Source: a virus (taxonomy: Duplodnaviria > Heunggongvirae > Uroviricota > Caudoviricetes). From it: a stretch of 36,000 nucleotides of DNA. The stretch covers positions 1 to 36,000 of IMG/VR virus record IMGVR_UViG_2534681759_000010; one strand, given 5' to 3'. Positions 1 through 35,040 of the stretch are shown here, piece by piece. The first letter of the stretch is position 1. The number at the start of each line of letters is the position of its first letter. The translations under genes were made by a program, and so were the position numbers. Below the pieces are notes generated by a model. That model worked only from the letters and a program-made list of their open reading frames with translations. It did no database searches and was not told the DNA's origin.

Positions 1-351
1 ATGCGAGAGACAGTCGAAATTATGCGTTATCCCGTCACTCTTACACCCGCGCCGGAAGGCGGTTATATGGTTTCTTTTGTGGATATCCCTGAAGCGTTGA
101 CGCAGGGCGAAACTGTCGCTGAAGCGATGGAAGCGGCAAAAGATGCTTTACTGACCGCATTTGATTTTTATTTTGAAGATAACGAGCTAATCCCGTTACC
201 TTCGCCATTAAATAGTCATGATCACTTTATTGAAGTACCTTTGAGCGTCGCCTCTAAGGTATTGCTGTTAAATGCTTTTTTACAGTCAGAAATCACTCAG
301 CAAGAGTTAGCCAGGCGAATTGGCAAACCTAAATGTTGTAAACCCCAATAA
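1..351 (+). CDS. hicB: HicB-family antitoxin, C-terminally truncated: HicA-neutralising N-terminal fold retained, DNA-binding tail replaced by CCKPQ-stop
   Basis: Translation MRYPVTLTPAPEGGYMVSFVDIPEALTQGETVAEAMEAAKDALLTAFDFYFEDNELIP...QQELARRIGKPK matches my recollection of enterobacterial HicB over about 105 residues, then diverges at about nt 336. Not verified by search. Confidence 0.6.
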   Translation: MRETVEIMRYPVTLTPAPEGGYMVSFVDIPEALTQGETVAEAMEAAKDALLTAFDFYFEDNELIPLPSPLNSHDHFIEVPLSVASKVLLLNAFLQSEITQQELARRIGKPKCCKPQ

Positions 352-364
352 CTAAAATTTTTGC

Positions 365-396
365 AATAAAAAAGCCCCATCACAAGGACAGGGCTA
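365..396 (-). terminator. Weak rho-independent terminator for the minus-strand gene 415..720
   Basis: AGCCC...GGGCT stem with a large loop; the A-run on the + strand gives a U-run after the hairpin on the minus-strand transcript. Confidence 0.35.
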
Positions 397-414
397 TAGA
401 ATCAATCACTTACA

Positions 415-720
415 TCACTTAATGTCTTTCATTCTACGGATACGCGCGCTTGCTTCCGGTAGTTCATCCAGTGTTACGTGATAAGCAAGCATACAGACAG
501 GAGTCGGATCAAATCCCTCATGAGTATTGATCAGATGGCTATTCCCGCCTTTAAACTCATCCTGTCCATCCCATATAGCGTACACGTCATCTTCTGCTAC
601 ATAGATAATCAATCCAATAGGGGAGTTAGTAAGCTGGAAGATGCAGCCAGTAGAATCAATACGATGTTCCCGAACGTCATCAACAGTTTCAAAGTCAATC
701 TTAATATCTTTAGTCTTCAT
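415..720 (-). CDS. Hypothetical protein, 101 aa, immediately inside the candidate junction
   Basis: Intact ORF with a downstream hairpin plus U-run; no family recognised. Confidence 0.5.
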   Translation of the reverse strand: MKTKDIKIDFETVDDVREHRIDSTGCIFQLTNSPIGLIIYVAEDDVYAIWDGQDEFKGGNSHLINTHEGFDPTPVCMLAYHVTLDELPEASARIRRMKDIK

Positions 721-1019
721 GATTTGCCCTCGCGTGAAAAATATTTTCGATTATTTATAAAAAAGACTTGACAAAATCAAAAGGTACTGTTCCACGGGTG
801 AAATAAAGCGAGTTTTCGGCACCCCGGTTTTTGATGTGCGTGTGAGATTTCAAAACAGGTGCAGTGCAGCCCACCAGCGCGGTCGCTACGCGACTATTAA
901 CACCAGCCAATCCCTTTCCCTGCCTCGATCTTTCCCTTCGTTATAAAGCGTTTTAGGCGCTCTCCTGAATGCGCAGATCAGATAAATAATTTTACGCAAA
1001 TTTAATGGAGGATAACCGG

Positions 1020-2221: not shown

Positions 2222-2247
2222 GGGACTCTTCGGAGTCCCTTTTTTTA
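2222..2247. terminator. Rho-independent terminator, possibly bidirectional
   Basis: GGGACTC-TTCG-GAGTCCC hairpin followed by TTTTTTT; abuts the stop codon of minus-strand gene 2245..3186. Confidence 0.5.
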
Positions 2248-3186
2248 TTGGCAGTAAGAAAAGTTAGTACCGTACATTTCATCATGAAGCATTGCAGCAT
2301 TGCGTTTCTGTTCTTCTTCCTCATCTTCTACATCACTAGAAAAATGAGATTTGCCCTTAAAAGAACGAAGTAATTGCAGTGCAGCCATCGGATCACGCAT
2401 CACATCGATTTTCACTTCTACTTCATCATTTGCGGCCTCATCAGCCGCGTTTTCAACTACTGCCACCGGAGCAACTTCTTTAGCTTTCAGTTCTTCAATC
2501 TCAGCTTTCTGTGCTTCGATAATCTGGTCTTTTTCTTCCAATGCAGCTTTCAGTTCTGCGATCTGTGCTTCCAGTGCAGCAAAGCGATCTTCAACAACCG
2601 GAGAAACAGCATTCACCTGTGCTTCCAGTTCCAGAAATGCTTCGCAAGATTCAATACGTTCTTTCTCTTCACCTTCATAAGCAACCAGTTCTACAACTTC
2701 TTTTTCGGTAGCGTGGCTGTTAAAGAAAACAGCAAAGTAAGGATTGCCGGATTTAGTGAAGTTCAGTTTAGCTTTTCCGGTAACTTCTTTACGACGACCG
2801 AAGGTGATCTGGCAATCAGCGGTATCCTGAAAATCCATGTTAGGAGCGGAAACGATAGCAGTATCACCAGCAATAACCAGGTGGAACAGTTCAGAAGAGT
2901 TCTTAACGGTAAAAGTAACGATGTGGTCTACTGCAACGTCTTTAGCAGGTTTAACGCGGTCGATTGCTTTACGAATGCCGTTAGGCAGTTTACCGTCAAC
3001 ACCAAAGCCAGCCGCGATCAGTGCTTCACGATGTGCTTTAAAGCCAGCGAAAGCGGATTTCTGCTGCGCAAAGGAAACATGAGCAACAACTTTCGGCTGA
3101 ATCTTCTTGTTTGCTTCGGTGCCAAATTTGATAACTGCTTTAGCGTTGGTTACTTCGTTAGTGAAAAAGTTAGCGGAAAATAACAT
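2245..3186 (-). CDS. Hypothetical protein, 313 aa, with central coiled coil (AALEAQIAELKAALEEKDQIIEAQKAEIEELKAKE) and acidic C-terminus
   Basis: Long intact ORF; the + strand ORFs across it are low-complexity shadows. No family assigned. Confidence 0.55.
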   Translation of the reverse strand: MLFSANFFTNEVTNAKAVIKFGTEANKKIQPKVVAHVSFAQQKSAFAGFKAHREALIAAGFGVDGKLPNGIRKAIDRVKPAKDVAVDHIVTFTVKNSSELFHLVIAGDTAIVSAPNMDFQDTADCQITFGRRKEVTGKAKLNFTKSGNPYFAVFFNSHATEKEVVELVAYEGEEKERIESCEAFLELEAQVNAVSPVVEDRFAALEAQIAELKAALEEKDQIIEAQKAEIEELKAKEVAPVAVVENAADEAANDEVEVKIDVMRDPMAALQLLRSFKGKSHFSSDVEDEEEEQKRNAAMLHDEMYGTNFSYCQ

Positions 3187-3300: not shown

Positions 3301-3483
3301 TTACCAAACGGTAGCTTCAATCTTCACTTTAATGTCATATCGTTTTAGCAGTTTATGAAAGGTTGATTTATCGATGCCCTCATTTTTAAACCACTCTTCA
3401 ATTCTCACACCCGGCGTTAACTCAAAGTAGCGTTTAGCCATTTCTAAGATGATTTCGCGAGTGAACTTAACAGGTCGTGCCAT
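3301..3483 (-). CDS. Small HTH-type DNA-binding protein, 60 aa; regulator or excisionase/RDF-like candidate
   Basis: Compact basic ORF; co-oriented with 2245..3186 and downstream of the leftward promoter at about 3905-3933. Confidence 0.45.
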   Translation of the reverse strand: MARPVKFTREIILEMAKRYFELTPGVRIEEWFKNEGIDKSTFHKLLKRYDIKVKIEATVW

Positions 3484-3904
3484 CTCGAATCCTCCTACAA
3501 TGTGGATTAATGATTTCTTAAAAAAGAGCGTTAACCGCTCACTATTATTTATATGGGGATTGTATTTTATTTTTCAACCCCTCACATTTATCTCTTATAT
3601 ATGTATTTACAACAGAGATATGTTAAAATGTTATTCAGATGTTATCAGACGTGTTAAATGTGTTAAACCACAGCACGAATTGCTAAAGCGAAGAACACGA
3701 TTTAACCAAATTGATGTATATTCAATCAATTTAGAAAAAGGCATAGCACTTTTTGCTAAAGCGGTGAGCATTAATTGAGCTATGAATTGTAAAGATTTGT
3801 TACAAGATTTTCTCTCAGATCCAAATCTTCACAGGCATATAACAATTTAACACGGTGATAACAAACGGAAGGAAAATCGGTAAATTTTCACTTTCAATAC
3901 AAAT

Positions 3905-3933
3905 ATTATACCACATTTTTCTCCAATTGTCAA
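3905..3933 (-). promoter_or_regulatory. Leftward sigma70 promoter: TTGACA, 17-nt spacer, TATAAT on the minus strand
   Basis: + strand ATTATA near 3905-3910 and TTGTCAA near 3927-3933 are the reverse complements of TATAAT and TTGACAA with a 17-nt spacer. Confidence 0.45.
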
Positions 3934-4000
3934 GTGTAGCACCGATCCTACACAGTGTCAACAAAGGATTTTCAAACCTACACTAGCCCTACACTATGAA

Positions 4001-4195
4001 AATTGCCCCTGAATTTTTGCCCCTGAACCAAAATCCCCTAGATTCCACATCCAATTTTTGCCCCTGAAACCCACTATTTTTGCCCCTGAAATTCTGGGAA
4101 ACAGTGATTTTGCCCCTCATTTTTGCCCCTGAAATGCCAATAATTGCCCCTGAAAATCTAATTTTTGCCCCTGAAATTTGCCCCCCCGAAAAGGA
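4001..4195. repeat. Array of about 8-9 direct copies of (T)TTTGCCCCTGAA(A) with irregular spacing
   Basis: Copies read at approximately 4001, 4013, 4054, 4076, 4107 (degenerate), 4121, 4142, 4160 and 4176 (degenerate). The same core forms the palindromic stem of the terminator at about 6494-6522. Confidence 0.65.
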
Positions 4196-4352
4196 TTGGT
4201 GAGAAAAACTCTTTATAAAACATTAACTTAGTGAGGGGCAAAAGCGGGGGATCGGGCGTGCATAGATATTATATAACACATTCGCTACGCTCATGTGTAA
4301 AACCAAAAACAACAAATAACCAAAAAGATATTAGGAGGGCGTAGCCCGACTG

Positions 4353-4650
4353 CGCGAAGCGCCAACCAATTACTTCTAGTAACAACTAATTTAAACTAGA
4401 TGATCTTAGAAGGAATTAACTAGTTTGCTCGCTCGCTTCGCTCACTCCCAAACGTCTGCGACGCCACTGCGTGGCATCGAGAATCACTTTTGAAAGGATT
4501 TTCTTAGAAAGGGATTTAATACCAGATGATAACTGATTCTAGTAAACGAACGAAGTGAGTAACAATCACTTTCTAGAAAGGTATTGGTTATCCCTTCGGG
4601 ATTGCAACCTTCGGTTGCCAAATTGCTTCCTGATTATTATTATTTCTCCA
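4353..4650 (+). ncRNA. Candidate structured non-coding RNA or leader: two tandem UUCG-tetraloop hairpins, then a U-rich tract
   Basis: No ORF; repeated CTAGAAAGG-ATT motifs; ATCCC-TTCG-GGGAT and GCAAC-CTTCG-GTTGC hairpins near 4590-4620 followed by a T-rich run; bracketed by an 18/20 direct repeat. Strand and ends uncertain. Confidence 0.25.
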
Positions 4651-4824
4651 AAAGAAAGATTCTTATATTCTAAAGATACTTCTTCGTTTTGATGATGGTT
4701 TAATCAAATTATGAAGGAGGGCTTTGCCCGACTGAATACAATCACCTTTCATAATAACAAGAATTTTCTCTTTATAAATAATAGTGAACTTACTTGATTC
4801 ACTTTCTTTTAGAGGATTTCCACT

Positions 4825-5561: not shown

Positions 5562-5662
5562 GATAAAAACTTCTTATAAATAAAATTGTTCCGCGCGCCG
5601 TTGGCGTGTGGACAGTTAAAACAGGAGAATCAATCACTAAACCGTTTAAGGGGAATTTAATT

Positions 5663-6487
5663 ATGAATACTGTTACTGCTATGAATACTGCTAAAACTGC
5701 TTCCGTGTCTCTGGTTGTTGATAACACCAAACCGCTGACCATGTCTTCTCGTCAGATCGCTGAATTTACCGATAAGAAGCACAGCAATGTAATGCGCGAT
5801 ATTCGCGAAATGTACGAATCTTTAGGTATTATCGATCAGCTCAAAACTGAATTTGTCGAGAGAATCAATAACTTAGGATATGCTGTTAAAGAACCAGTAT
5901 ATCACTTAGACGAAGAAATGACGCTGACTCTTGTCACTGGTTACGATGTTAAGCGTCGAATGGTTGTTATTCAGGAATGGAAGCGACTGAAAGAAGAAAA
6001 TGAAAAACTGCGTCAGGAACGTTTAGCTGCTAACCCGTATGCAGACTTTGAAGAAACAGACTGGATCGAACTGGCATTAAAGAAAACTCGCGAAAATAAA
6101 AAGCTGATTGAACTTCATGTTCGCAAATCCGTAGATAGCCATTCAATGACCCGTCTGTTAGGCGCTAAAAAGGGCGCTACGAAGGTTAAAGAAGCACTGA
6201 CGGCCTTGCGTACTGCTGGCTACATTGAGCGCGTCTACGATGAAAATAACAAGCCGTGTGGGTATGTTGCTAATGACTCTTCTCTGTCTTTCTGCCGCAT
6301 GAATGCTCACTACCAACTTGAGTTTACTGTTGATGTTCTTCCGGTGCTGGTTGAATTGGGCGTTTTGGAAGAAGAACAGAAAGCAACTCTTAAACTACCG
6401 CAGCCAAATAACACTATTCTGATTCAAAACAAAGCGGCTGAACGTCTCCGCCAGAATGTTGGATCACTGGAACACTTCGGACTGTAA
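5663..6487 (+). CDS. Rha-family phage regulatory protein
   Basis: N-terminal LTMSSRQIAEFTDKKHSNVMRDIREM fits the Rha signature; start taken at the internal ATG with an AGGGG RBS (track start 5606 + 57). Confidence 0.65.
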   Translation: MNTVTAMNTAKTASVSLVVDNTKPLTMSSRQIAEFTDKKHSNVMRDIREMYESLGIIDQLKTEFVERINNLGYAVKEPVYHLDEEMTLTLVTGYDVKRRMVVIQEWKRLKEENEKLRQERLAANPYADFEETDWIELALKKTRENKKLIELHVRKSVDSHSMTRLLGAKKGATKVKEALTALRTAGYIERVYDENNKPCGYVANDSSLSFCRMNAHYQLEFTVDVLPVLVELGVLEEEQKATLKLPQPNNTILIQNKAAERLRQNVGSLEHFGL

Positions 6488-6493
6488 TAATTT

Positions 6494-6522
6494 TTGCCCC
6501 TGAAATTCAGGGGCTTTTTTTG
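6494..6522 (+). terminator. Strong rho-independent terminator
   Basis: GCCCCTGA-AAT-TCAGGGGC hairpin followed by TTTTTTT. Confidence 0.7.
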
Positions 6523-6572: not shown

Positions 6573-6803
6573 TCAAATTCCTGTTGCTTCTACCATTTCA
6601 CCATCAACCTGAACAAAGAATTTCAAATCAACTTTATGGAGTGATTTGTAGAATTGAGCAATTGAAATACCATGTTCACTCAATACTTGTTCTTTTTCGG
6701 CTTTACCTTTCGGTGCTTGATAGTACGCTTTTACAATCGCTGCCAGTTGTTCACGATCAAAACGGCAAGGACGACCGCGAGTAGCTTTAGTAGTCATAGT
6801 CAT
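6573..6803 (-). CDS. Stand-alone Hin/resolvase-type HTH DNA-binding protein, 76 aa
   Basis: TRGRPCRFDREQLAAIVKAYYQ...HGISIAQFYKSL follows the GRP-x-HTH pattern of Hin-family C-terminal domains; no catalytic domain. Confidence 0.5.
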   Translation of the reverse strand: MTMTTKATRGRPCRFDREQLAAIVKAYYQAPKGKAEKEQVLSEHGISIAQFYKSLHKVDLKFFVQVDGEMVEATGI

Positions 6804-6831: not shown

Positions 6832-7437
6832 TTATTTAGAGGACTTACATTTTATCGGAAAAAGTTCTCCATCGTCAATACTCATAAAGAACTCTGCCTT
6901 AATCCCGTACTTCTTCAACCGTGAATAGTATGTCCCCCGACTTATATCAACCTTGCGAAGCACTTCAAAGAACCCTTTAGGATCGTTGTAATAGTGGCTA
7001 TAACGCACGTTAGCGAGTTCAACGAATAGTTCCCTTGTATCACCATAGCCTTTCTTGAAAGCCTCGTTACGATAGCGTGTAATGGCATGATTCAATCTCT
7101 TCTGTTTCAACACTTCCCTGATCGGTGTCCACTGCAACCGATAGATAGGACCGTCATCAATGCGATAATAACGCTTGATATCAAAATCAAACCAATCTCG
7201 GACTCTCCGAAACTCTGTATGTGATGTGCGATGCTTCTTAAAGAAGTTATGGATATCTGTATACCCATGATCGCGATACAACTCGATTAAAATTTGCTTC
7301 GCTTCCTCACGACTAAAGCCGGATGTTGTGTAATCAGTCTTCTTGTGATGGTGCTTAACTGGCAAACGATATTCATGATCGGTACAACAAGACAAGGCTA
7401 ATTCTACTTCATCTCTTTGTTGCTGATTAATTAGCAT
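6832..7437 (-). CDS. Hypothetical basic protein, 201 aa, with C-terminal HTH ([15 protein letters not shown])
   Basis: Intact ORF co-oriented with 6573..6803; HTH-like C-terminus; N-terminal domain unassigned. Confidence 0.5.
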
Positions 7438-7524: not shown

Positions 7525-9429
7525 ATGAAACTAATTTCTAATAAGGCCAAATTAAAAAAGATTCTCAGAAATGCAGCCAAATATATTACGCCACCGCCTA
7601 AACTCCTTCCTTCTGAATGGTGCGAAGCGAATATGGTGCTGGTAGATGGTCCTCAAGCGGGGGATAAAGTTAAATTGCTGTCATTCCAGAAAGGCATGAT
7701 TGATGCTCCTTTCCTTGAGAATAAGAAAAAGTATGTACTGATGACCAGTGCGCAGATCGGAAAAACTACCATCCTAAACGGTATCCTGTTTAACCAGATG
7801 GCTAACGATCCATGCAATATGATTATCGGACAATCAACCGCTAAAGAAATGTCTCAATATCTCGCGGGTAAGATCCGACCGTCTATCGAAGCATGTGATG
7901 CATTGAAAGACGTGGTTACAGACAAGAATGATCGTAATGCGGTTAACAACAATAACCAACTCCAGTTAAAAACGAATCACTTCCTGTACATGGTATCGCT
8001 TACCAGTCCATCAACCCTACGCGGTAAGACCGCAAAGGTTGGATTGCTTGACGAAATCGATGCTGCCACAGCCTCAGAAGAAGGTGATCCGGTGGCACTG
8101 GCTGCTAACCGTTTAACTACCTTTGGCGATGAAGGTCGATTAGTCGTATCCAGTACCCCGACCAGTAAGCTGGGAAGCATTAACCAGCAATGGTTATCAA
8201 ACGATATGCGTATGTTTTTTGTTCCGTGTCCTCATTGCGGGGAACACCAGGTGATCGAGTGGGAAAACGTTCAATTTGAATGGCGTAACATTGATGGTAA
8301 GAACTTACCCGATCCTGATACCGCTCGTTATATTTGCCCCCACTGTAAGAACGCATGGACCGAAGGGGAACGAATCAGGGCAGTAGCACAAGGCGAGTGG
8401 AGAGCAACCCGTGAAAGTGAGGTAGCAGGATTCTGGATTAGCCGTCTGTATTCACCTTTCAGCACGATTCGCGCTTGTGTGGTTGATTTTAGTCATGCGT
8501 GGCAATCCTTTGATTTACAATCATTTTATAACACCGTGTTAGGCAAGGTATACGACGATCAGGACACGGCAGTAGAAGCAAATGAACTGGAACAACTCAA
8601 AACAGATGTTTCTATCGAGAATATCCCTGATGACGTGATTTTCTTGTGTGCGGGTACTGACCAGCAATTAGATCGCGCAGAAACTACGATCATGGGCGTG
8701 GCAAAGGATAAAATTTATATTCTGGATCACCGCAGCTTTTACGATCATAACTGTGAACGATATGAATCCCCTGTATGGGATAGATTAATCAACTTCCATA
8801 AAACCAAATTTACTACTGTATCGGGTGATCGTGTTCCTATGCTCGCCAGCTTCCTTGATACATCGAACGGTCGATTCACTCAAGCTGGATACCGTATTTG
8901 CGGCAAGTGGAAGAACTTACACGCTATCAAAGGTAGTTCTGCTGGTAACGCTCCGATCATTCCGGTTAAACCTACCCGCACAGGTGGTCATGAATTGCTT
9001 ATGTTGGGTGTTAACGTGGGTAAAACTGCATTTCGTGAAATGTTGGCTAGGAACCTGAAAGATAATCCTCATATTGGCTTAGAAATATCAGACACCGTTC
9101 CTGATGATTATCTCGATCAGCTTTTAAGTGAATCTGTCAAGCGTACTACTACTGGCGTGAGATGGGTAAAGAACCCAGGCGTTAGGAACGAGGCGCTCGA
9201 CTGCGCCGTGTATGCTACAGCGGCTTCTCGCTACGTCCTTTCAAAAATGTCATGGGATAAACTCATTGCAATGAAAGACAGCTTAAACCGTGTTGTCGAA
9301 GAACCCGTAGAAGCTCCTAAATCGCAATCTGACGAGCAAATCGAAGAAAATAAGCCAATCACACGACCACAACGTAAAAACATCGCCAGACGTCCAAATA
9401 GAGGCCGTAGCTGGGTAACATCGTTCTAA
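7525..9429 (+). CDS. Terminase large subunit, lambda GpA family
   Basis: PCPHCGEHQ vs lambda ACPHCGEEQ; YSPFST vs YSPFTT; [12 protein letters not shown] vs AGIDSQLDRYEM; [15 protein letters not shown] vs RRNEALDCFVYALAA. Confidence 0.85.
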
Positions 9430-31130: not shown

Positions 31131-31712
31131 TTAGAATATGCTGGCGACGTTAGCTATATTTCTGACCATTTTTTCATTATAAACAAACGTTTCTGTAGCA
31201 CCTTCTTTAATATCAAAATCACCTTTTACTAGGTTTTTCTTGATAAACAATTCTGCCGCGTATGCGTCTTTTTCGTCTTGAAATTCGAAAGCCTCGATGA
31301 TATCAAATTTCATCTTATTCTGGCATCTTAGCTTATGTTTTCTCTTCAACACATTGTGACTTACTCCAACCTTACCCACATCACCACACCGCATAACATA
31401 TAATACTGGTTGCCCATTTTTATATTTGTTGTCATATTTGCTACGATTACACGGGCACACAGTAGGATTATGTAAGAATTGTTTTGCTGTTATATCTCTG
31501 ATTCTTGCGCAGCTTTCACACTCTAGCACAATACGGCTATTGATTGATTTATACTCACCTTTGAATCCGTGGTAAATCAAGGGTAAACCCTCGTTTTCAA
31601 TACGGGTCACGATCCTTGCTTCCATATCAATTGGATGTGATGGCGCTTTGCCATTTTTGGTGCGGATAAAATTGAACGGGATATCACATGCTTTGCGCAC
31701 ATCATTCATCAT
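31131..31712 (-). CDS. Zinc-finger plus T5orf172 (GIY-YIG superfamily) domain protein; homing-endonuclease-like
   Basis: Cys cluster CESCARIRDITAKQFLHNPTVCPC; LYVMRCGDVGKVGVSHNVLKR ... ETF fits the T5orf172 pattern. Start set at the internal ATG with a GAGG RBS (track start 31724 is a GTG). Confidence 0.55.
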   Translation of the reverse strand: MMNDVRKACDIPFNFIRTKNGKAPSHPIDMEARIVTRIENEGLPLIYHGFKGEYKSINSRIVLECESCARIRDITAKQFLHNPTVCPCNRSKYDNKYKNGQPVLYVMRCGDVGKVGVSHNVLKRKHKLRCQNKMKFDIIEAFEFQDEKDAYAAELFIKKNLVKGDFDIKEGATETFVYNEKMVRNIANVASIF

Positions 31713-31752
31713 AAAAAACCTCACTTAATTTATCTTATAGGCATTACCTTTA

Positions 31753-32205
31753 ATGTTGATGATCGAGTTCGTAGAAACCGAATTAACTAAACTGGCTTCC
31801 GAAATGGAAGAAGAAACTCCGGCAGAAGGAACCAGTATTAACGATCTTATTCTGGCAGCAGATACCGCAGATGATAAAGTAGTATTCGACGAAGTTGATC
31901 CGTCTCTGGTTGAAGCAATGAAAGAACCTGAGATCGTCATTGAAGAAACAAAAGAAGAATCTCCAGCAGTTGAACCAGTGGTCGAAGAAGTTAAGTCAGA
32001 TGTTGAAGAAGCACCGGAAGTTAAAGTGAAATCTCCGGTAGCAAACATTTTCTCTGACGAAGCAGAACATCGTTCCCCAGCACATGACACTGATTCATTT
32101 TGCGATCTTACTGGCTTCCGTCCGACCATTTGCTTGATCGGTGGCGGTCGTGGTTACTACTCCTGCCCGTGGTCTTCAACCATTACAACAAATTTTTCTC
32201 AATAA
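31753..32205 (+). CDS. Highly acidic protein, 150 aa (E/D/V/P-rich, VEE repeats); DNA-mimic or anti-restriction candidate
   Basis: Frame uses codons I recall as preferred in enterobacteria (GAA, CCG, CTG, GCA); the overlapping minus-strand ORF 31725..32129 is a Ser/Thr-rich antisense shadow. Confidence 0.5.
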   Translation: MLMIEFVETELTKLASEMEEETPAEGTSINDLILAADTADDKVVFDEVDPSLVEAMKEPEIVIEETKEESPAVEPVVEEVKSDVEEAPEVKVKSPVANIFSDEAEHRSPAHDTDSFCDLTGFRPTICLIGGGRGYYSCPWSSTITTNFSQ

Positions 32206-32240
32206 ATAGTAGTGAACTTATTATTTTCGAGGACACTAAT

Positions 32241-33239
32241 ATGAATACTACTTTAGCAAAGGATATCGAATTTACCGCAAAAAGCAAACGTGCGACCCCT
32301 CCGGTCGAATATGAAACCAGAATCATTAAAGTTTGTCAAGCGCATGGATGGTTATACAGTGGTTTTGTGCTTCCTGTAAAGAAACCATTCCAGAACACCA
32401 AAGTTTGCATAGAAGTTAACGGAAAGGTTAAAACGCCATGTATTAGTCATGTTCTAACTGGTCAGTTTACTGGCAAAGATAGAGTATCACCGCCTAAGAA
32501 GAAGTTTAGATTTACCGAAGAAGAACACTTAGAAAACGCTCGCAAGTTCTACAAGCCGATAGGGTGGGATGTGTTAGGTCTGGCTGAACCTTATCAGGGT
32601 GTTGACACTAAACTAATTCTTCGTTGTAAGTGCCACGGAAAGATTCACAAGAAAGGTGATTTACACAATAACCGCAGACAAGGCGGGTTAACATGCCCTT
32701 TGGTTAGGGGTGTACTTAAATCAATTCAGAATGGTAGAAAACAGGTTATCAGAAACAAGTTTGCACAGCGCCCTATGCACTTTTATCTAATTCGTGTTGG
32801 CGAGAAGTTTTTCAAATATGGAATTACCACTCGCAAAGATCCGATGCAACGGGTAAGAGAACACCAGAAGCACACCAGCGAGAAAATCACCTTTGAATGC
32901 TCACATTTGTTTAACATTGGATGGAAAGCTGGTGATTTAGAAATGGGGATTAAAAAGAATATTCAGGGCAAGAAAATCCCACGTAAGGTAATGAATAGCG
33001 GATTCACAGAAACGCTACCGATTAGCAAGCTGAAAGATGTTAAATCATTCATCAATGAATACATCCACACCAACCCATCTAAGCCAATGTATTTTGATGA
33101 TACCAACGCAATCAATCTGAACAACTACATTAGTGATGAAGACATAGAACGAGATTTATCGCAGTGGATGAATGCACCGTTAGCTGATTTAACACCGGAA
33201 AACTTAGAACTCGATTTAAGCCCTTTAGAGGCTCTCTAA
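32241..33239 (+). CDS. Second zinc-finger plus T5orf172 domain protein, divergent paralog of 31131..31712
   Basis: GAGG RBS before the internal ATG (track start 32100 + 141); Cys/His cluster RCKCHGKIHKKGDLH...LTCPL; HFYLIRVGEKFFKYGITTRKDPMQRVREH fits the T5orf172 core. Confidence 0.55.
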   Translation: MNTTLAKDIEFTAKSKRATPPVEYETRIIKVCQAHGWLYSGFVLPVKKPFQNTKVCIEVNGKVKTPCISHVLTGQFTGKDRVSPPKKKFRFTEEEHLENARKFYKPIGWDVLGLAEPYQGVDTKLILRCKCHGKIHKKGDLHNNRRQGGLTCPLVRGVLKSIQNGRKQVIRNKFAQRPMHFYLIRVGEKFFKYGITTRKDPMQRVREHQKHTSEKITFECSHLFNIGWKAGDLEMGIKKNIQGKKIPRKVMNSGFTETLPISKLKDVKSFINEYIHTNPSKPMYFDDTNAINLNNYISDEDIERDLSQWMNAPLADLTPENLELDLSPLEAL

Positions 33240-33310: not shown

Positions 33311-34990
33311 TTAAATTCCAAATTCCTGTAATGGACCTGGTATTTCCTCTTCTGGTTTCCAGTTCTTATCTGTCAGCATGTCTAAACATGGATGCAAAAC
33401 AAGCCCGTTACTTTCCAGAATCTGTCTATCATTGATAGTTTTCAAATCAACGAAGATCCGGCCTTTCCTCGGTCCTCTTGAATTTTCTATTACAACTCTC
33501 TGGGTCTTGCCATCGATGTATTCCAGTACAAACAAGTTTTTGTACTTGTCAATCCTGCTACACCCGATCCGTTTTAGAGCTTGCTTAATCTTAAACCGGA
33601 CCTTAATGCGATCCTCGTTGTAAACATCTTCTATATCAAATTCTGCGAGCTTCTCCCAGCCTTGAGAGTCAACAGAATACATTTCCTCTTCTGCCATCTT
33701 AATTTGATTGTAGAGTGTTTCACGCTCGCTATTGAGGGTAGTAATCTGATCGGCTAGCTCCTTCGTTGCTCCTGTCATAGCAGAAAGGGTAATCAGGTTA
33801 TCAATCTTGCGTGATATTTCATCAATCTGTACTTTCAAAGCCGGAACCGGATTAGCCTTATCCTCAGCAATCCAGATTTTATCAGCCAGCAATTGCAATA
33901 CAGCTTTCTCTAATTGATCACCTCGAAAACTCCAGTTTGTATGCACACATGCAATACGACTAGAGCGCATTGCATCGCATGAATAACGATATTGGTTAGG
34001 ACGTTTGTTAGTTCCTTTCACCTTAACCATAGCGGAACCGCAATGTTCACATTTCAATAGACCAACACCACTAAGCAAGGGAATAGGTTTAACTTCTTCC
34101 TTGTCTCCATAGTTACATGCTCTAACACCAATGCTTTTCTTAAGGTGATAAAACTCAGCGTCATCTAGCACACGAGGATAATAATCCTTTAACTCATACT
34201 TAACGCCATCTACAGAGATTTCCTTGATACCAATCAAAGCGCGGGTATGGAACAACCTTTCAATCATTGCCCGTGACCAGTTTGAATGCCTCTTGTGACT
34301 TGCGGCTGGTGGTGGTGTGTATGTCGCGTTAAGGTGATCCAGTATCTCGGCGGTTGACCGTCCATTCCTGCGTAATTCCACAACTTCCTGAACAATAGGG
34401 AAGAAGACCGGATGAGGAAGCACATAACCAGATGTGGTATCAGTCCACCACATATTCTTTCCAATTTCCTCGATTGCAACAGCCGGATTTTGTGGATTTT
34501 CTTGATGAGCTTTAATCTTAATCAATGCGCTTGAGTTAGTACGATTGCGCTTAGTCTGACTTTCCTCGTTAGCTCTCGCAAACAACATGACACTCAACAG
34601 CAAATCAATAGGATTGGCATTAACCGATTCCTTGCTATAGACCTTACCATCCATGCCAGTTACGATAGTTATTCCCCTACGGATAATCGAGAGAAATAGC
34701 TCTTGTGCTTCAATGATGGATTGGCGAGAGATACGGTCTAAGTTTTCCACAACCAGCCAGCTACCAACCGGAACGGATCGACCAATCTCATCCAGAAAGC
34801 GAGATAGTGCACCTGTTCTACTGTTAGCCCCTTTGAATGCAGATACACCAAAATCCTGATAGGAAGTAACCAGTTCAAGGTCATATTTTGCGGCTATCTC
34901 TGCGGCTGTTCTCTTTTGGCGTTCATAAGAACTACCATCTGCTTGCTTCATGGAAGAGAAGCGAATATACGAATACAGTTTAGTTTTCAT
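33311..34990 (-). CDS. Large serine recombinase (serine integrase or invertase-like)
   Basis: N-terminal resolvase catalytic domain (MKTKLYSYIRFSSMKQADGSSYERQ); long C-terminal extension with Cys cluster (CEHCGS...C...C) and coiled coil, typical of large serine recombinases. Start at the internal ATG (track start is a TTG). Confidence 0.8.
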   Translation of the reverse strand: MKTKLYSYIRFSSMKQADGSSYERQKRTAAEIAAKYDLELVTSYQDFGVSAFKGANSRTGALSRFLDEIGRSVPVGSWLVVENLDRISRQSIIEAQELFLSIIRRGITIVTGMDGKVYSKESVNANPIDLLLSVMLFARANEESQTKRNRTNSSALIKIKAHQENPQNPAVAIEEIGKNMWWTDTTSGYVLPHPVFFPIVQEVVELRRNGRSTAEILDHLNATYTPPPAASHKRHSNWSRAMIERLFHTRALIGIKEISVDGVKYELKDYYPRVLDDAEFYHLKKSIGVRACNYGDKEEVKPIPLLSGVGLLKCEHCGSAMVKVKGTNKRPNQYRYSCDAMRSSRIACVHTNWSFRGDQLEKAVLQLLADKIWIAEDKANPVPALKVQIDEISRKIDNLITLSAMTGATKELADQITTLNSERETLYNQIKMAEEEMYSVDSQGWEKLAEFDIEDVYNEDRIKVRFKIKQALKRIGCSRIDKYKNLFVLEYIDGKTQRVVIENSRGPRKGRIFVDLKTINDRQILESNGLVLHPCLDMLTDKNWKPEEEIPGPLQEFGI

Positions 34991-34999
34991 ACCATTTCC

Positions 35000-35040
35000 A
35001 AACAAAAACGCCCCTACCGCGTATTATAACGATAGGGGCA
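35000..35040 (-). terminator. Hairpin terminator immediately upstream of the recombinase start
   Basis: GCCCCTA...TAGGGGC stem with a 16-nt loop containing TATTATAAC, followed on the minus strand by GTTTTTGTTT. Confidence 0.4.

Follow-up and report, generated by a model that had tools for sequence, protein, structure and literature searches.

An array of short direct repeats lies in non-coding DNA near the left end of the stretch analysed here, positions 1 to 36,000 of IMG/VR record IMGVR_UViG_2534681759_000010 (hereafter the window). The locus raises two questions: which protein recognizes these repeats, and what function do the sites serve?

The host element

The window is not a free phage genome. 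It is Escherichia coli chromosomal DNA carrying a cos-type prophage of ~36 kb (42% GC) inserted in hicB. The first ORF of the window is this antitoxin gene, and an NCBI E. coli contig with the same genes has the host genes ydcO, ydcN, ydcP, yncJ and hicA upstream. In strain ES2, the same element, also spanning ~36 kb, interrupts ycdX. The element was found in 58 of 5426 complete E. coli genomes, and all of its 64 places were chromosomal, none being on a plasmid; the prophage family is carried by about 1% of complete E. coli genomes and by some Salmonella. In the metagenome, the related contigs reaching the left end of the element all continued into E. coli hicB, other matches to the motif corresponded to unrelated repeats, and the scan yielded no virion-derived linear contigs ending at a cos site. 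Neither the element nor its large terminase has a close relative in culture, and identity to the best terminase match is 43%.

The element begins with a 101-aa ORF (minus strand), the small terminase gene, a gene for a 94-aa membrane protein, and the p313 and p60 genes (both minus strand). The array is located in the 1.34 kb of non-coding DNA after p60, beyond which lie p155, a small ORF, Rha (5606–6487) and the minus-strand genes p76 (6573–6803) and p201. The large terminase gene is followed by the portal gene, a protease-capsid fusion, tail and lysis genes and variable cargo, and the serine integrase gene is followed by three small genes. The genes considered below are:

1005–1580: small terminase, Nu1-like, phrog_57
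2245–3186, minus strand: p313, a 313-aa orphan protein and, from its co-variation, the candidate array binder
3301–3483, minus strand: p60, HTH-like and small, whose gene comes first in the leftward p60–p313 operon, between p313 and the array
7525–9429: large terminase, lambda GpA type
33311–35005, minus strand: large serine recombinase (serine integrase)

No replication protein was identified in the ~36 kb element by PHROGs, Pfam or RefSeq annotation; the phage encodes no helicase, loader or primase, and no ParA- or ParM-type NTPase is encoded in the element. The region upstream of the small terminase gene (~760–1005) is conserved in every relative, whatever the array type, and contains a cos-like palindrome, GTCGC-TAC-GCGAC (882–894), followed by CCCTTTCCC-type repeats. 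This is the lambda-like place for cos, and we consider the region a candidate cos site.

Organization of the repeat array

The array and its inverted companion have the following layout:

4001–4190, plus strand: type-A array, nine co-oriented units TTTTGCCCCT(GAA) with the core TTTTTGCCCCT(GAA)
4001, 4015, 4056, 4078, 4108, 4121, 4142, 4163 and 4176, plus strand: starts of the type-A units
4231–4243, minus strand: single inverted unit, GTGAGGGGCAAAA on the plus strand, 40 bp to the right of the array

A search of the window with the 13-mer TTTTGCCCCTGAA identified exact copies on the plus strand at 4015, 4056, 4078, 4121 and 4163, and copies with two mismatches at 4001, 4108 and 4142. The unit at 4108 is a variant ending in ...CCTCAT, and the ninth unit (4176–4190, ATTTGCCCCCCCGAA) is degenerate. 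The initial annotation, which had recorded at least eight direct repeats, was right on this point: with up to two mismatches allowed, the window contains 10 matches to the 13-mer, against 1.27 expected by chance, and none of 100 shuffles reached this number. It had placed the array at 3780–4200, which is too wide on the left: the first unit is found only at 4001, and the DNA from 3780 to 4000 holds a leftward sigma-70 promoter instead. The start-to-start spacings of the units are 14, 41, 22, 30, 13, 21, 21 and 13 bp, with multiples of ~21 bp as the main series. The inverted unit is the exact complement of the variant unit (4108–4119), and it is able to pair with any unit of the array over 10–12 nt.

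Conservation of the array and its types

A search of related genomes, proposed with the initial annotation as a check on its reading, showed that the array is kept; the lack of conservation that was to count against that reading is thus not observed. The A array was found in 15 IMG/VR contigs, 33 of the 5426 complete E. coli genomes, gut metagenome contigs and one Salmonella prophage (L045). In 22 distinct type-A sequences, the units are essentially invariant and the spacers vary; between the window and L045, identity is 93% in unit columns and 74% in spacer columns (Fisher p = 4e-4), and E. coli and Salmonella share one spacing pattern (13, 21, 22 and 41–43 bp) to within 1 nt. A divergent relative, L071, has seven units sharing only TTTTTGCCCCT with the others, which suggests that the recognized core is ~11 bp; its p313 homologue (P0192) is 56% identical in the N-domain, and the array is again followed by an inverted copy. 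This copy is kept in most A-type relatives, including Salmonella L045 and L071, and is degenerate in L005, L010, L049, L050 and L012.

Relatives from E. coli and Salmonella have an array at the same place, built from at least four unrelated types of unit (A, B, C and D):

Type B: unit CCCTACACTAG, in Salmonella L046 and 11 E. coli loci
Type C: unit ATCCCCTAGATTCCAC; AAAATCCCC(T/C)(A/G)GATTCCAC, in L047
Type D: TCCCCG-based units, in L037

Types B, C and D, like type A with its nine units, consist of co-oriented direct repeats in helical phase; a full or partial inverted unit recurs at the right edge of arrays of types A, A' (L071), B and D. The initial annotation had suggested that the repeats act as iteron-like binding sites, and with co-oriented, helically phased units that are more conserved than their spacers and kept in relatives, the array does appear to behave in this way. 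Units of other types also occur in and beside the A array of the window:

3977–3997, plus strand: two B-type units, CCTACACTAG and CCTACACTAT, at the left edge of the A array
4030–4048, plus strand: one C-type unit, AAAATCCCCTAGATTCCAC, between A units 2 and 3

The B-type units, near which there is a further CCTACAC (3947–3953), are kept in many A-type relatives, L071 included. The C-type unit, which explains the 41-bp gap in the array, likewise recurs in several relatives, Salmonella L045 among them. These units may be relics or sites for one or more other factors.

The core of the repeat also recurs, as had been noted initially, in the terminator of the Rha gene, where an exact copy (6492–6504) supplies the 5' arm of a hairpin, GCCCCTGAAATTCAGGGGC, with a T-run after it. 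This copy persists in E. coli elements that have B-type arrays, whereas the Salmonella A-type element lacks it. Its retention is therefore unrelated to array type, and it is part of the Rha module rather than of the array system.

Apparent second arrays were detected in five genomes. Those of L069 and L070 were checked and proved to be off-register self-matches within one array. An additional genome, NZ_CP063332, does carry two arrays. Strain BS74R-D has two different A-type prophages with identical p313 in one chromosome, a single case in which gene conversion between the copies is possible.

Sequences flanking the array

An alignment of A, B, C and D loci showed that type-specific DNA begins exactly at the first array unit and that loci of different types can be aligned again only from ~4480. 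Two flanking features are relevant here:

4191–4480, plus strand: type-specific right flank, which travels with the array
3905–3933, minus strand: consensus leftward sigma-70 promoter, TTGACA (3933–3928), 17 nt, TGnTATAAT (3910–3905); 12/12, extended −10

The right flank consists, in order, of 40 bp of AT-rich DNA, the inverted unit, a GC-rich stretch (4244–4261), TCGCTACGC (4282–4290), an A-rich tract and the first structured modules. The GC-rich stretch is variable, and it was dropped as a candidate cosN because it is not kept in Salmonella L045. One relaxed DnaA box (4294–4302) is not kept in L045 either, and no consistent pattern of DnaA boxes, IHF sites or a strongly AT-rich unwinding element was found beside the arrays across the types, the flanks being moderately AT-rich.

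The leftward promoter would drive the p60–p313 operon. Its −35 hexamer lies 68 bp from the start of the array in the window, whereas the equivalent promoter is ~200 bp from the array in relatives with a swapped regulatory cassette, so the geometry of promoter and array is not fixed. No sigma-70-like promoter on the plus strand was detected in, beside or upstream of the array in the window. A −10-like TAT(T/G)AT sequence, read directly from the window and L045, is conserved 22–23 nt downstream of the inverted unit, which could overlap the −35 position of a weak putative promoter with TATTAT (4267–4272) as its −10. In relatives, LexA boxes (SOS boxes) are found upstream of the array.

Directly downstream of the array, the plus strand contains hairpins with compensatory changes (4330–4820), the changes being read directly from the sequences. 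No match to Rfam families was obtained at gathering or E-value thresholds, and a tRNA scan found nothing. A DNA search of GenBank phages with the non-coding region yielded only chance AT-rich matches to T4-like phages, and a literature search with the assembly accession or the repeat sequences found nothing relevant. Arrays of all four types are C-rich and G-poor on the plus strand (GC skew −0.30 to −0.69), a bias that is fully explained by none of the models considered below.

Co-variation of the array with p313

Every neighbouring protein was compared with 48 loci by tblastn, and p313 alone was present in every A locus while being undetectable in every other locus. A co-variation table was then compiled by tblastn, in which the A, B, C and D proteins, each divided into an N-terminal and a C-terminal fragment, were run against 50 array-bearing loci. 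Array type was paired with the type of p313 N-domain in all 42 typed loci covering both features, and the table contained no cross-match between array types and N-domains. The 28 A arrays were associated with the A N-domain (98–100% identity in E. coli, 77% in Salmonella), the 12 B arrays with the B N-domain (69–72% between the two genera), and the single C array and single D array each with its own unrelated N-domain. The 33 complete E. coli genomes with a p313 gene are the same 33 that have the A cassette; four more genomes contain only IS-truncated 3' remnants of p313, and no array. The C-terminal part of the protein assorts separately, L015 and L030 having the A N-domain with another C-terminus.

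The p313 gene lies 0.8 kb from the array, and part of this co-inheritance could be due to plain linkage. However, the 3354–4009 segment has been swapped in L005, L010 and L015, with breakpoints between gene and array, and there is homology for recombination beyond the array as well (4480–4824). Despite these breakpoints, no discordant gene–array pair was seen in the typed loci, and linkage alone is therefore an imperfect explanation. We infer that selection keeps p313 and the array together.

None of the binders named in the initial annotation showed this behaviour. It had pointed to Rha, to the products of 3301–3483 (p60) and 6573–6803 (p76), and to the Nu1-like protein, all of which assort independently of array type. 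The Rha, p76, p201, p155, TerS and TerL variants had no association with array type. The p60 clusters cross array types (cluster 0 is common to A and B, cluster 3 to B and A, cluster 4 to D and B, and cluster 5 to A and C), so p60 is not the specificity partner, and the whole regulatory cassette comprising p60 and 3484–4000 assorts independently of the array. The small terminases of L045 and L046 are identical (P0048), yet these prophages have A and B arrays, respectively. The most likely partner would be a gene that the initial annotation did not name, located at 2245–3186 on the minus strand. Intuition would connect the repeats with Rha, the HTH proteins or the terminase, and the analysis corrects this view.

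Given this pattern of co-inheritance, p313 probably binds the array. The question of specificity is reduced to one pair, a 175-residue orphan domain and a 14-bp unit, for which four natural specificity variants exist. We therefore report what appears to be an iteron array with a cognate specificity protein of an unrecognized family, in an uncharacterized group of enterobacterial phages.

Features of p313

The p313 protein comprises a beta-rich N-domain (aa 1–175, nt 2662–3186), a coiled coil (~aa 182–236), an acidic linker and a conserved C-terminal tail, LHDEMYGTNFS. It has architecture, but not sequence, in common with its B, C and D analogues, in which a variable N-domain of ~170 aa is followed by a long helix or coiled coil, an acidic low-complexity linker and a short C-terminal tail. 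The tails are of two kinds, (L/I)LHDxxYxTN(F/Y)S or VExWNKY..., and often end in -AA.

Searches with p313 produced no match in Pfam, PHROGs or PDB sequences, and those with the analogues nothing meaningful in Pfam or PHROGs. No homologue of p313 was found in 50,697 GenBank phages, and no p313-type protein of types A, B or C on 72,556 plasmids (PLSDB). An exhaustive HMMER search of 1.8 billion representative proteins with the N-domain identified only two real distant homologues, P0192 and P0195; the matches to three giant repetitive proteins were sums of spurious hits and were discarded, and a word-indexed search with P0195 returned only itself. p313 belongs to none of the known Rep or O families, in one of which the protein of an iteron origin would be expected. 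The best AlphaFold2 model (three-sequence alignment, pLDDT 58) has a beta-rich N-domain and two or three helices, and fold searches retrieved only generic beta-barrels. The predicted fold speaks neither for nor against any function.

Possible functions of the array

In the model that we favour, the N-domain of p313 would be the binder of the array, and the two would form a specificity cassette existing in at least four versions (A–D) in one family of cos-type temperate phages of E. coli and Salmonella. The phased direct repeats would be filled by p313 monomers, which the coiled coil would join in a nucleoprotein complex, and the conserved C-terminal tail would recruit host replication proteins, a role that we propose because the phage has no helicase, loader or primase of its own. 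It is possible, although somewhat short of probable, that p313 and the array are the initiator and origin of lytic replication. Several observations point in this direction: the iteron geometry with its terminal inverted copy; the lambda-O-like modularity, with an N-domain matched to the sites and a C-terminus that varies on its own; the lack of any other replication function in a complete, inducible-looking phage; the availability of a separate regulatory cassette for the switch, with plentiful candidate regulators (p60, p76, p201, Rha and the LexA boxes); and the co-residence of two different A-type prophages in BS74R-D, which an origin accommodates more readily than an immunity determinant does. 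However, the signature of DnaA, IHF and unwinding sites is inconsistent, no known initiator fold is recognizable, and there is no plasmid or other independent replicon context. Furthermore, the array lies between divergent promoters, a position that would suit a regulatory role just as well, and an origin does not predict the C-rich, G-poor plus strand.

We suggest, with considerable reservation, that p313 and its B, C and D analogues constitute a previously unrecognized family of phage initiators, with a beta-rich DNA-binding domain unlike the winged-helix Rep and O proteins, a swappable cassette of N-domain and iterons, and a replisome-recruiting C-terminal peptide; perhaps together with the adjoining structured RNA, this would be the origin of a phage family without other replication genes. 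If p313 and the array are indeed initiator and origin, they would provide a new initiator fold and compact orthogonal replicon parts for enterobacteria.

A transcriptional control array is the main competitor, albeit a somewhat less likely one. p313 would then be a repressor or autoregulator, and maybe the immunity determinant, types A–D being hetero-immune in the manner of lambdoid cI and operators; a p313 multimer on the array and inverted copy would block or activate the rightward early operon (structured leader, p155 and Rha), feed back on the p60–p313 promoter, or both. The array is appropriately placed between a consensus leftward promoter and a rightward operon, SOS boxes lie upstream of it in relatives, the inverted unit would overlap the −35 position relative to the −10-like TAT(T/G)AT, and domain and sites are exchanged as a unit, exactly as in immunity cassettes. 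Nevertheless, nine asymmetric head-to-tail sites over 190 bp are atypical of operators, no rightward sigma-70-like promoter was detected in or beside the array, and the distance to the leftward promoter varies (68 bp versus ~200 bp). The independently assorting cassette of p60 and 3484–4000 looks like the real switch and can account for the choice between lysis and lysogeny. The two distinct A-type prophages with identical p313 in one chromosome also count against this explanation, as a single, suggestive case. If the array is regulatory or confers immunity, it would define a new class of repressor with iterated asymmetric operators.

The array might instead act at the RNA level, an explanation that we regard as improbable. 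It would be transcribed rightward as part of a long leader, with Rho loading or an RNA-binding p313 controlling read-through into p155 and Rha. The excess of C over G on the plus strand in all four types, the compensatory changes in the downstream plus-strand hairpins and the capacity of the inverted copy to pair with the units are consistent with this. However, no plus-strand promoter was identified upstream of the array in the window, and no Rfam match was obtained. Nor would co-variation with a protein domain be required of a generic Rho site, and phasing at 21 bp is a feature of the DNA duplex.

Still less likely is a centromere-like site for the partition or anchoring of the excised circular genome, similar to ParR/parC. 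A set of some ten direct repeats, phased and beside a promoter, together with a coiled-coil protein, does resemble parC and ParR of R1, but the element encodes no ParA- or ParM-type NTPase and, with its serine integrase, was always chromosomal (64 places, no plasmid).

Packaging recognition, also suggested by the initial annotation, is the least credible function: a cosB- or pac-like site bound by the small terminase, with 4244–4261 as cosN in a mirror image of lambda cos, would suit the lambda GpA-type large terminase, the nearby phrog_57 small terminase and an order of array, AT-rich spacer, inverted unit and GC-rich stretch recalling R1/R2-I1-R3-cosN, but an identical small terminase is found with A and B arrays, the TerS and TerL variants are uncorrelated with array type, the whole 4001–4480 segment is type-specific although the terminase genes are common to the types, and in all relatives the small terminase gene is immediately preceded by a strongly conserved region with a palindrome.

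Comparison with known systems

The resemblance to lambda cosB, with its R1–R3 sites bound by Nu1, lies in the repeated sites, one of them inverted, and a GpA-type terminase in the genome. Unlike cosB, the array neither adjoins the small terminase gene nor co-varies with it, and a separate cos-like region exists at ~760–1005.

Prophage origins of a non-RepA, RNA-based kind have been described in mycobacteriophages, in extrachromosomal parABS prophages for which no repeat array was reported (Wetzel et al. 2020, PMC7157519). The element studied here shares with these a long structured non-coding region and the lack of a recognizable initiator gene; it differs in that a protein partner can be inferred, a role for RNA being only possible. 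The direct repeats bound by a plasmid initiator are typically in tight linkage with the gene for that initiator (PMC7157519). The p313–array pair differs from this arrangement in being split by an unrelated regulatory cassette, which is unusual.

As in the immunity cassettes of temperate phages (lambdoid cI and operators; the phi105 repressor), protein and sites are swapped together and are located between divergent promoters. The operators of the phi105 repressor are asymmetric direct repeats. However, the nine head-to-tail sites lack dyad symmetry and have no demonstrable promoter overlap, p313 has no HTH or S24 domain, and a separate regulatory cassette assorts independently.

Iteron plasmids (pSC101 RepA, P1 RepA/incC, F RepE and R6K pi) have a single initiator of ~300 aa, to which p313 would correspond, co-oriented repeats with ~22-bp spacing and, as here, a partial inverted copy beside the direct repeats, and they depend fully on the host replisome, as the phage would. 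In contrast to these replicons, p313 falls in no Rep_3 or RepA family, neither DnaA boxes nor a clear unwinding element were found, and the module, part of an integrated prophage, was never on a PLSDB plasmid.

The lambdoid ori/O cassettes (lambda O, P22 gene 18) likewise have phased direct repeats, whose specificity follows the N-terminal domain of a single phage protein. In both cases, this protein continues with a flexible acidic linker and a C-terminal module that assorts on its own, and the cassette is exchanged among otherwise similar phages. Lambda has its iterons within the O gene itself, which is followed by a partner gene (P or a helicase). In the present element, 0.8 kb with another gene and a promoter region separates the array from p313, and there is no partner replication gene; p313 is not similar to O in sequence, and its predicted fold is unlike that of winged-helix initiators. 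While a demonstrable member of neither family, the p313–array pair is closest in its behaviour to the lambdoid ori/O cassettes and the iteron plasmids.

Integration site and gene content of the element

Prophage integration splits either hicB, as in the window (1-415), or ycdX, and this is consistent with the large serine recombinase of the prophage. The integration-site loci considered were window 1-415, L021/L022 (NZ_CM184352) and L072/L073 (NZ_CP063332); the last of these genomes, strain BS74R-D, carries two different copies of the prophage, 94% identical, one in hicB and the other in ycdX. In the element (~352-36000), otherwise a complete temperate siphophage, neither a known initiator nor any helicase, primase, loader or polymerase was detected with PHROGs, Pfam and RefSeq annotation. 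The stretch at 31131-33239, bounded by the lysis genes and the integrase, is a variable cargo slot, occupied by endonuclease-like genes in the window and, in other copies (L022, L072), by a GIY-YIG nuclease together with a DEAD/DEAH helicase. The slot is probably a hotspot for defence or moron genes.

Non-coding regions flanking the terminase gene and the array

The small and large terminase genes are 6 kb apart, and the small one has its own promoter. Non-coding DNA at 760-1005, upstream of the small terminase gene and conserved in all relatives whatever their array type, is likely to be the cos site. The features of this region and of those around the array are as follows.

Features of the window
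760-1005, cos-like region: promoter-like AAGACTTGACAAA; GTGCAGTGCAGCCC; palindrome GTCGC-TAC-GCGAC at 882-894; CCCTTTCCC/GATCTT motifs
3526-3540, minus strand, terminator-like hairpin directly before the p60 ribosome-binding site
3905-3933, minus strand, consensus leftward promoter (12/12)
4333-4352 and 4715-4734, repeated GGAG-hairpin-GACUG modules
4590-4602 and 4604-4618, two adjacent hairpins

The 9-mer TCGCTACGC occurs at two places in the window, inside the cos-like palindrome (883-891) and just to the right of the array (4282-4290), and the latter copy is kept in A-type relatives, including the Salmonella prophage L045 and the divergent L071.

The region between the array and p155, a gene preceding Rha, is conserved and structured (4330-4820), and matched no Rfam family. 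Its hairpin stems differ by compensatory changes between relatives from E. coli and those from Salmonella (GCAACC/GGTTGC, GGATGC/GCATCC, GGACAC/GTGTCC), which suggests a plus-strand transcript, either a leader or a non-coding RNA, or else hairpins formed in ssDNA. Within the A-type arrays of L069 (NZ_CP122768) and L070 (NZ_CP041628), spacers are duplicated between units (ACCCACTA, for example, is found twice), indicating gene conversion or slippage inside the array, with the units and their number retained.

Leftward transcription and the regulatory cassette

The terminator-like hairpin before p60 lies ~370 nt downstream of the leftward promoter, an arrangement that suggests either leftward transcription of a ~370-nt non-coding RNA or attenuation within a leader. 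A motif of the form GIxxSxFxKxLKKYxIK is common to the minus-strand products p60 (3301-3483), p76 (6573-6803) and p201 (6832-7437), and p201 has two copies of it. The three proteins appear to be small HTH-like regulators that are paralogues of one another.

In relatives, the regulatory cassette to the left of the array contains LexA boxes that are perfect or nearly so, implying that these cassettes would be under direct SOS control.

LexA boxes in relatives
L045, 13153-13168
L047, 6441-6456
L046, 12939-12954
L024, 3408-3526

A good LexA box is absent from the window's version of the cassette (3484-4000), which carries five TGTTA repeats at 3620-3668.

C-terminal tails of the p313 analogues

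Many analogues of p313, the putative array-binding protein, have C-terminal ends in -AA (YAA, FAA, RAA, KAA), and downstream of them lies a small coiled-coil gene whose product terminates in KKP(S/T)LR(L/I)V(S/A).

p313 analogues and downstream genes
p313 analogues: L046 11516-12535; L047 4707-5867; L037 3100-4101; L024 2004-3005
Small coiled-coil gene: L045 11292-11621; L024 1746-1988

Both kinds of tail look like interaction or degradation peptides, the -AA end of the p313 analogues resembling a ClpXP degradation signal.
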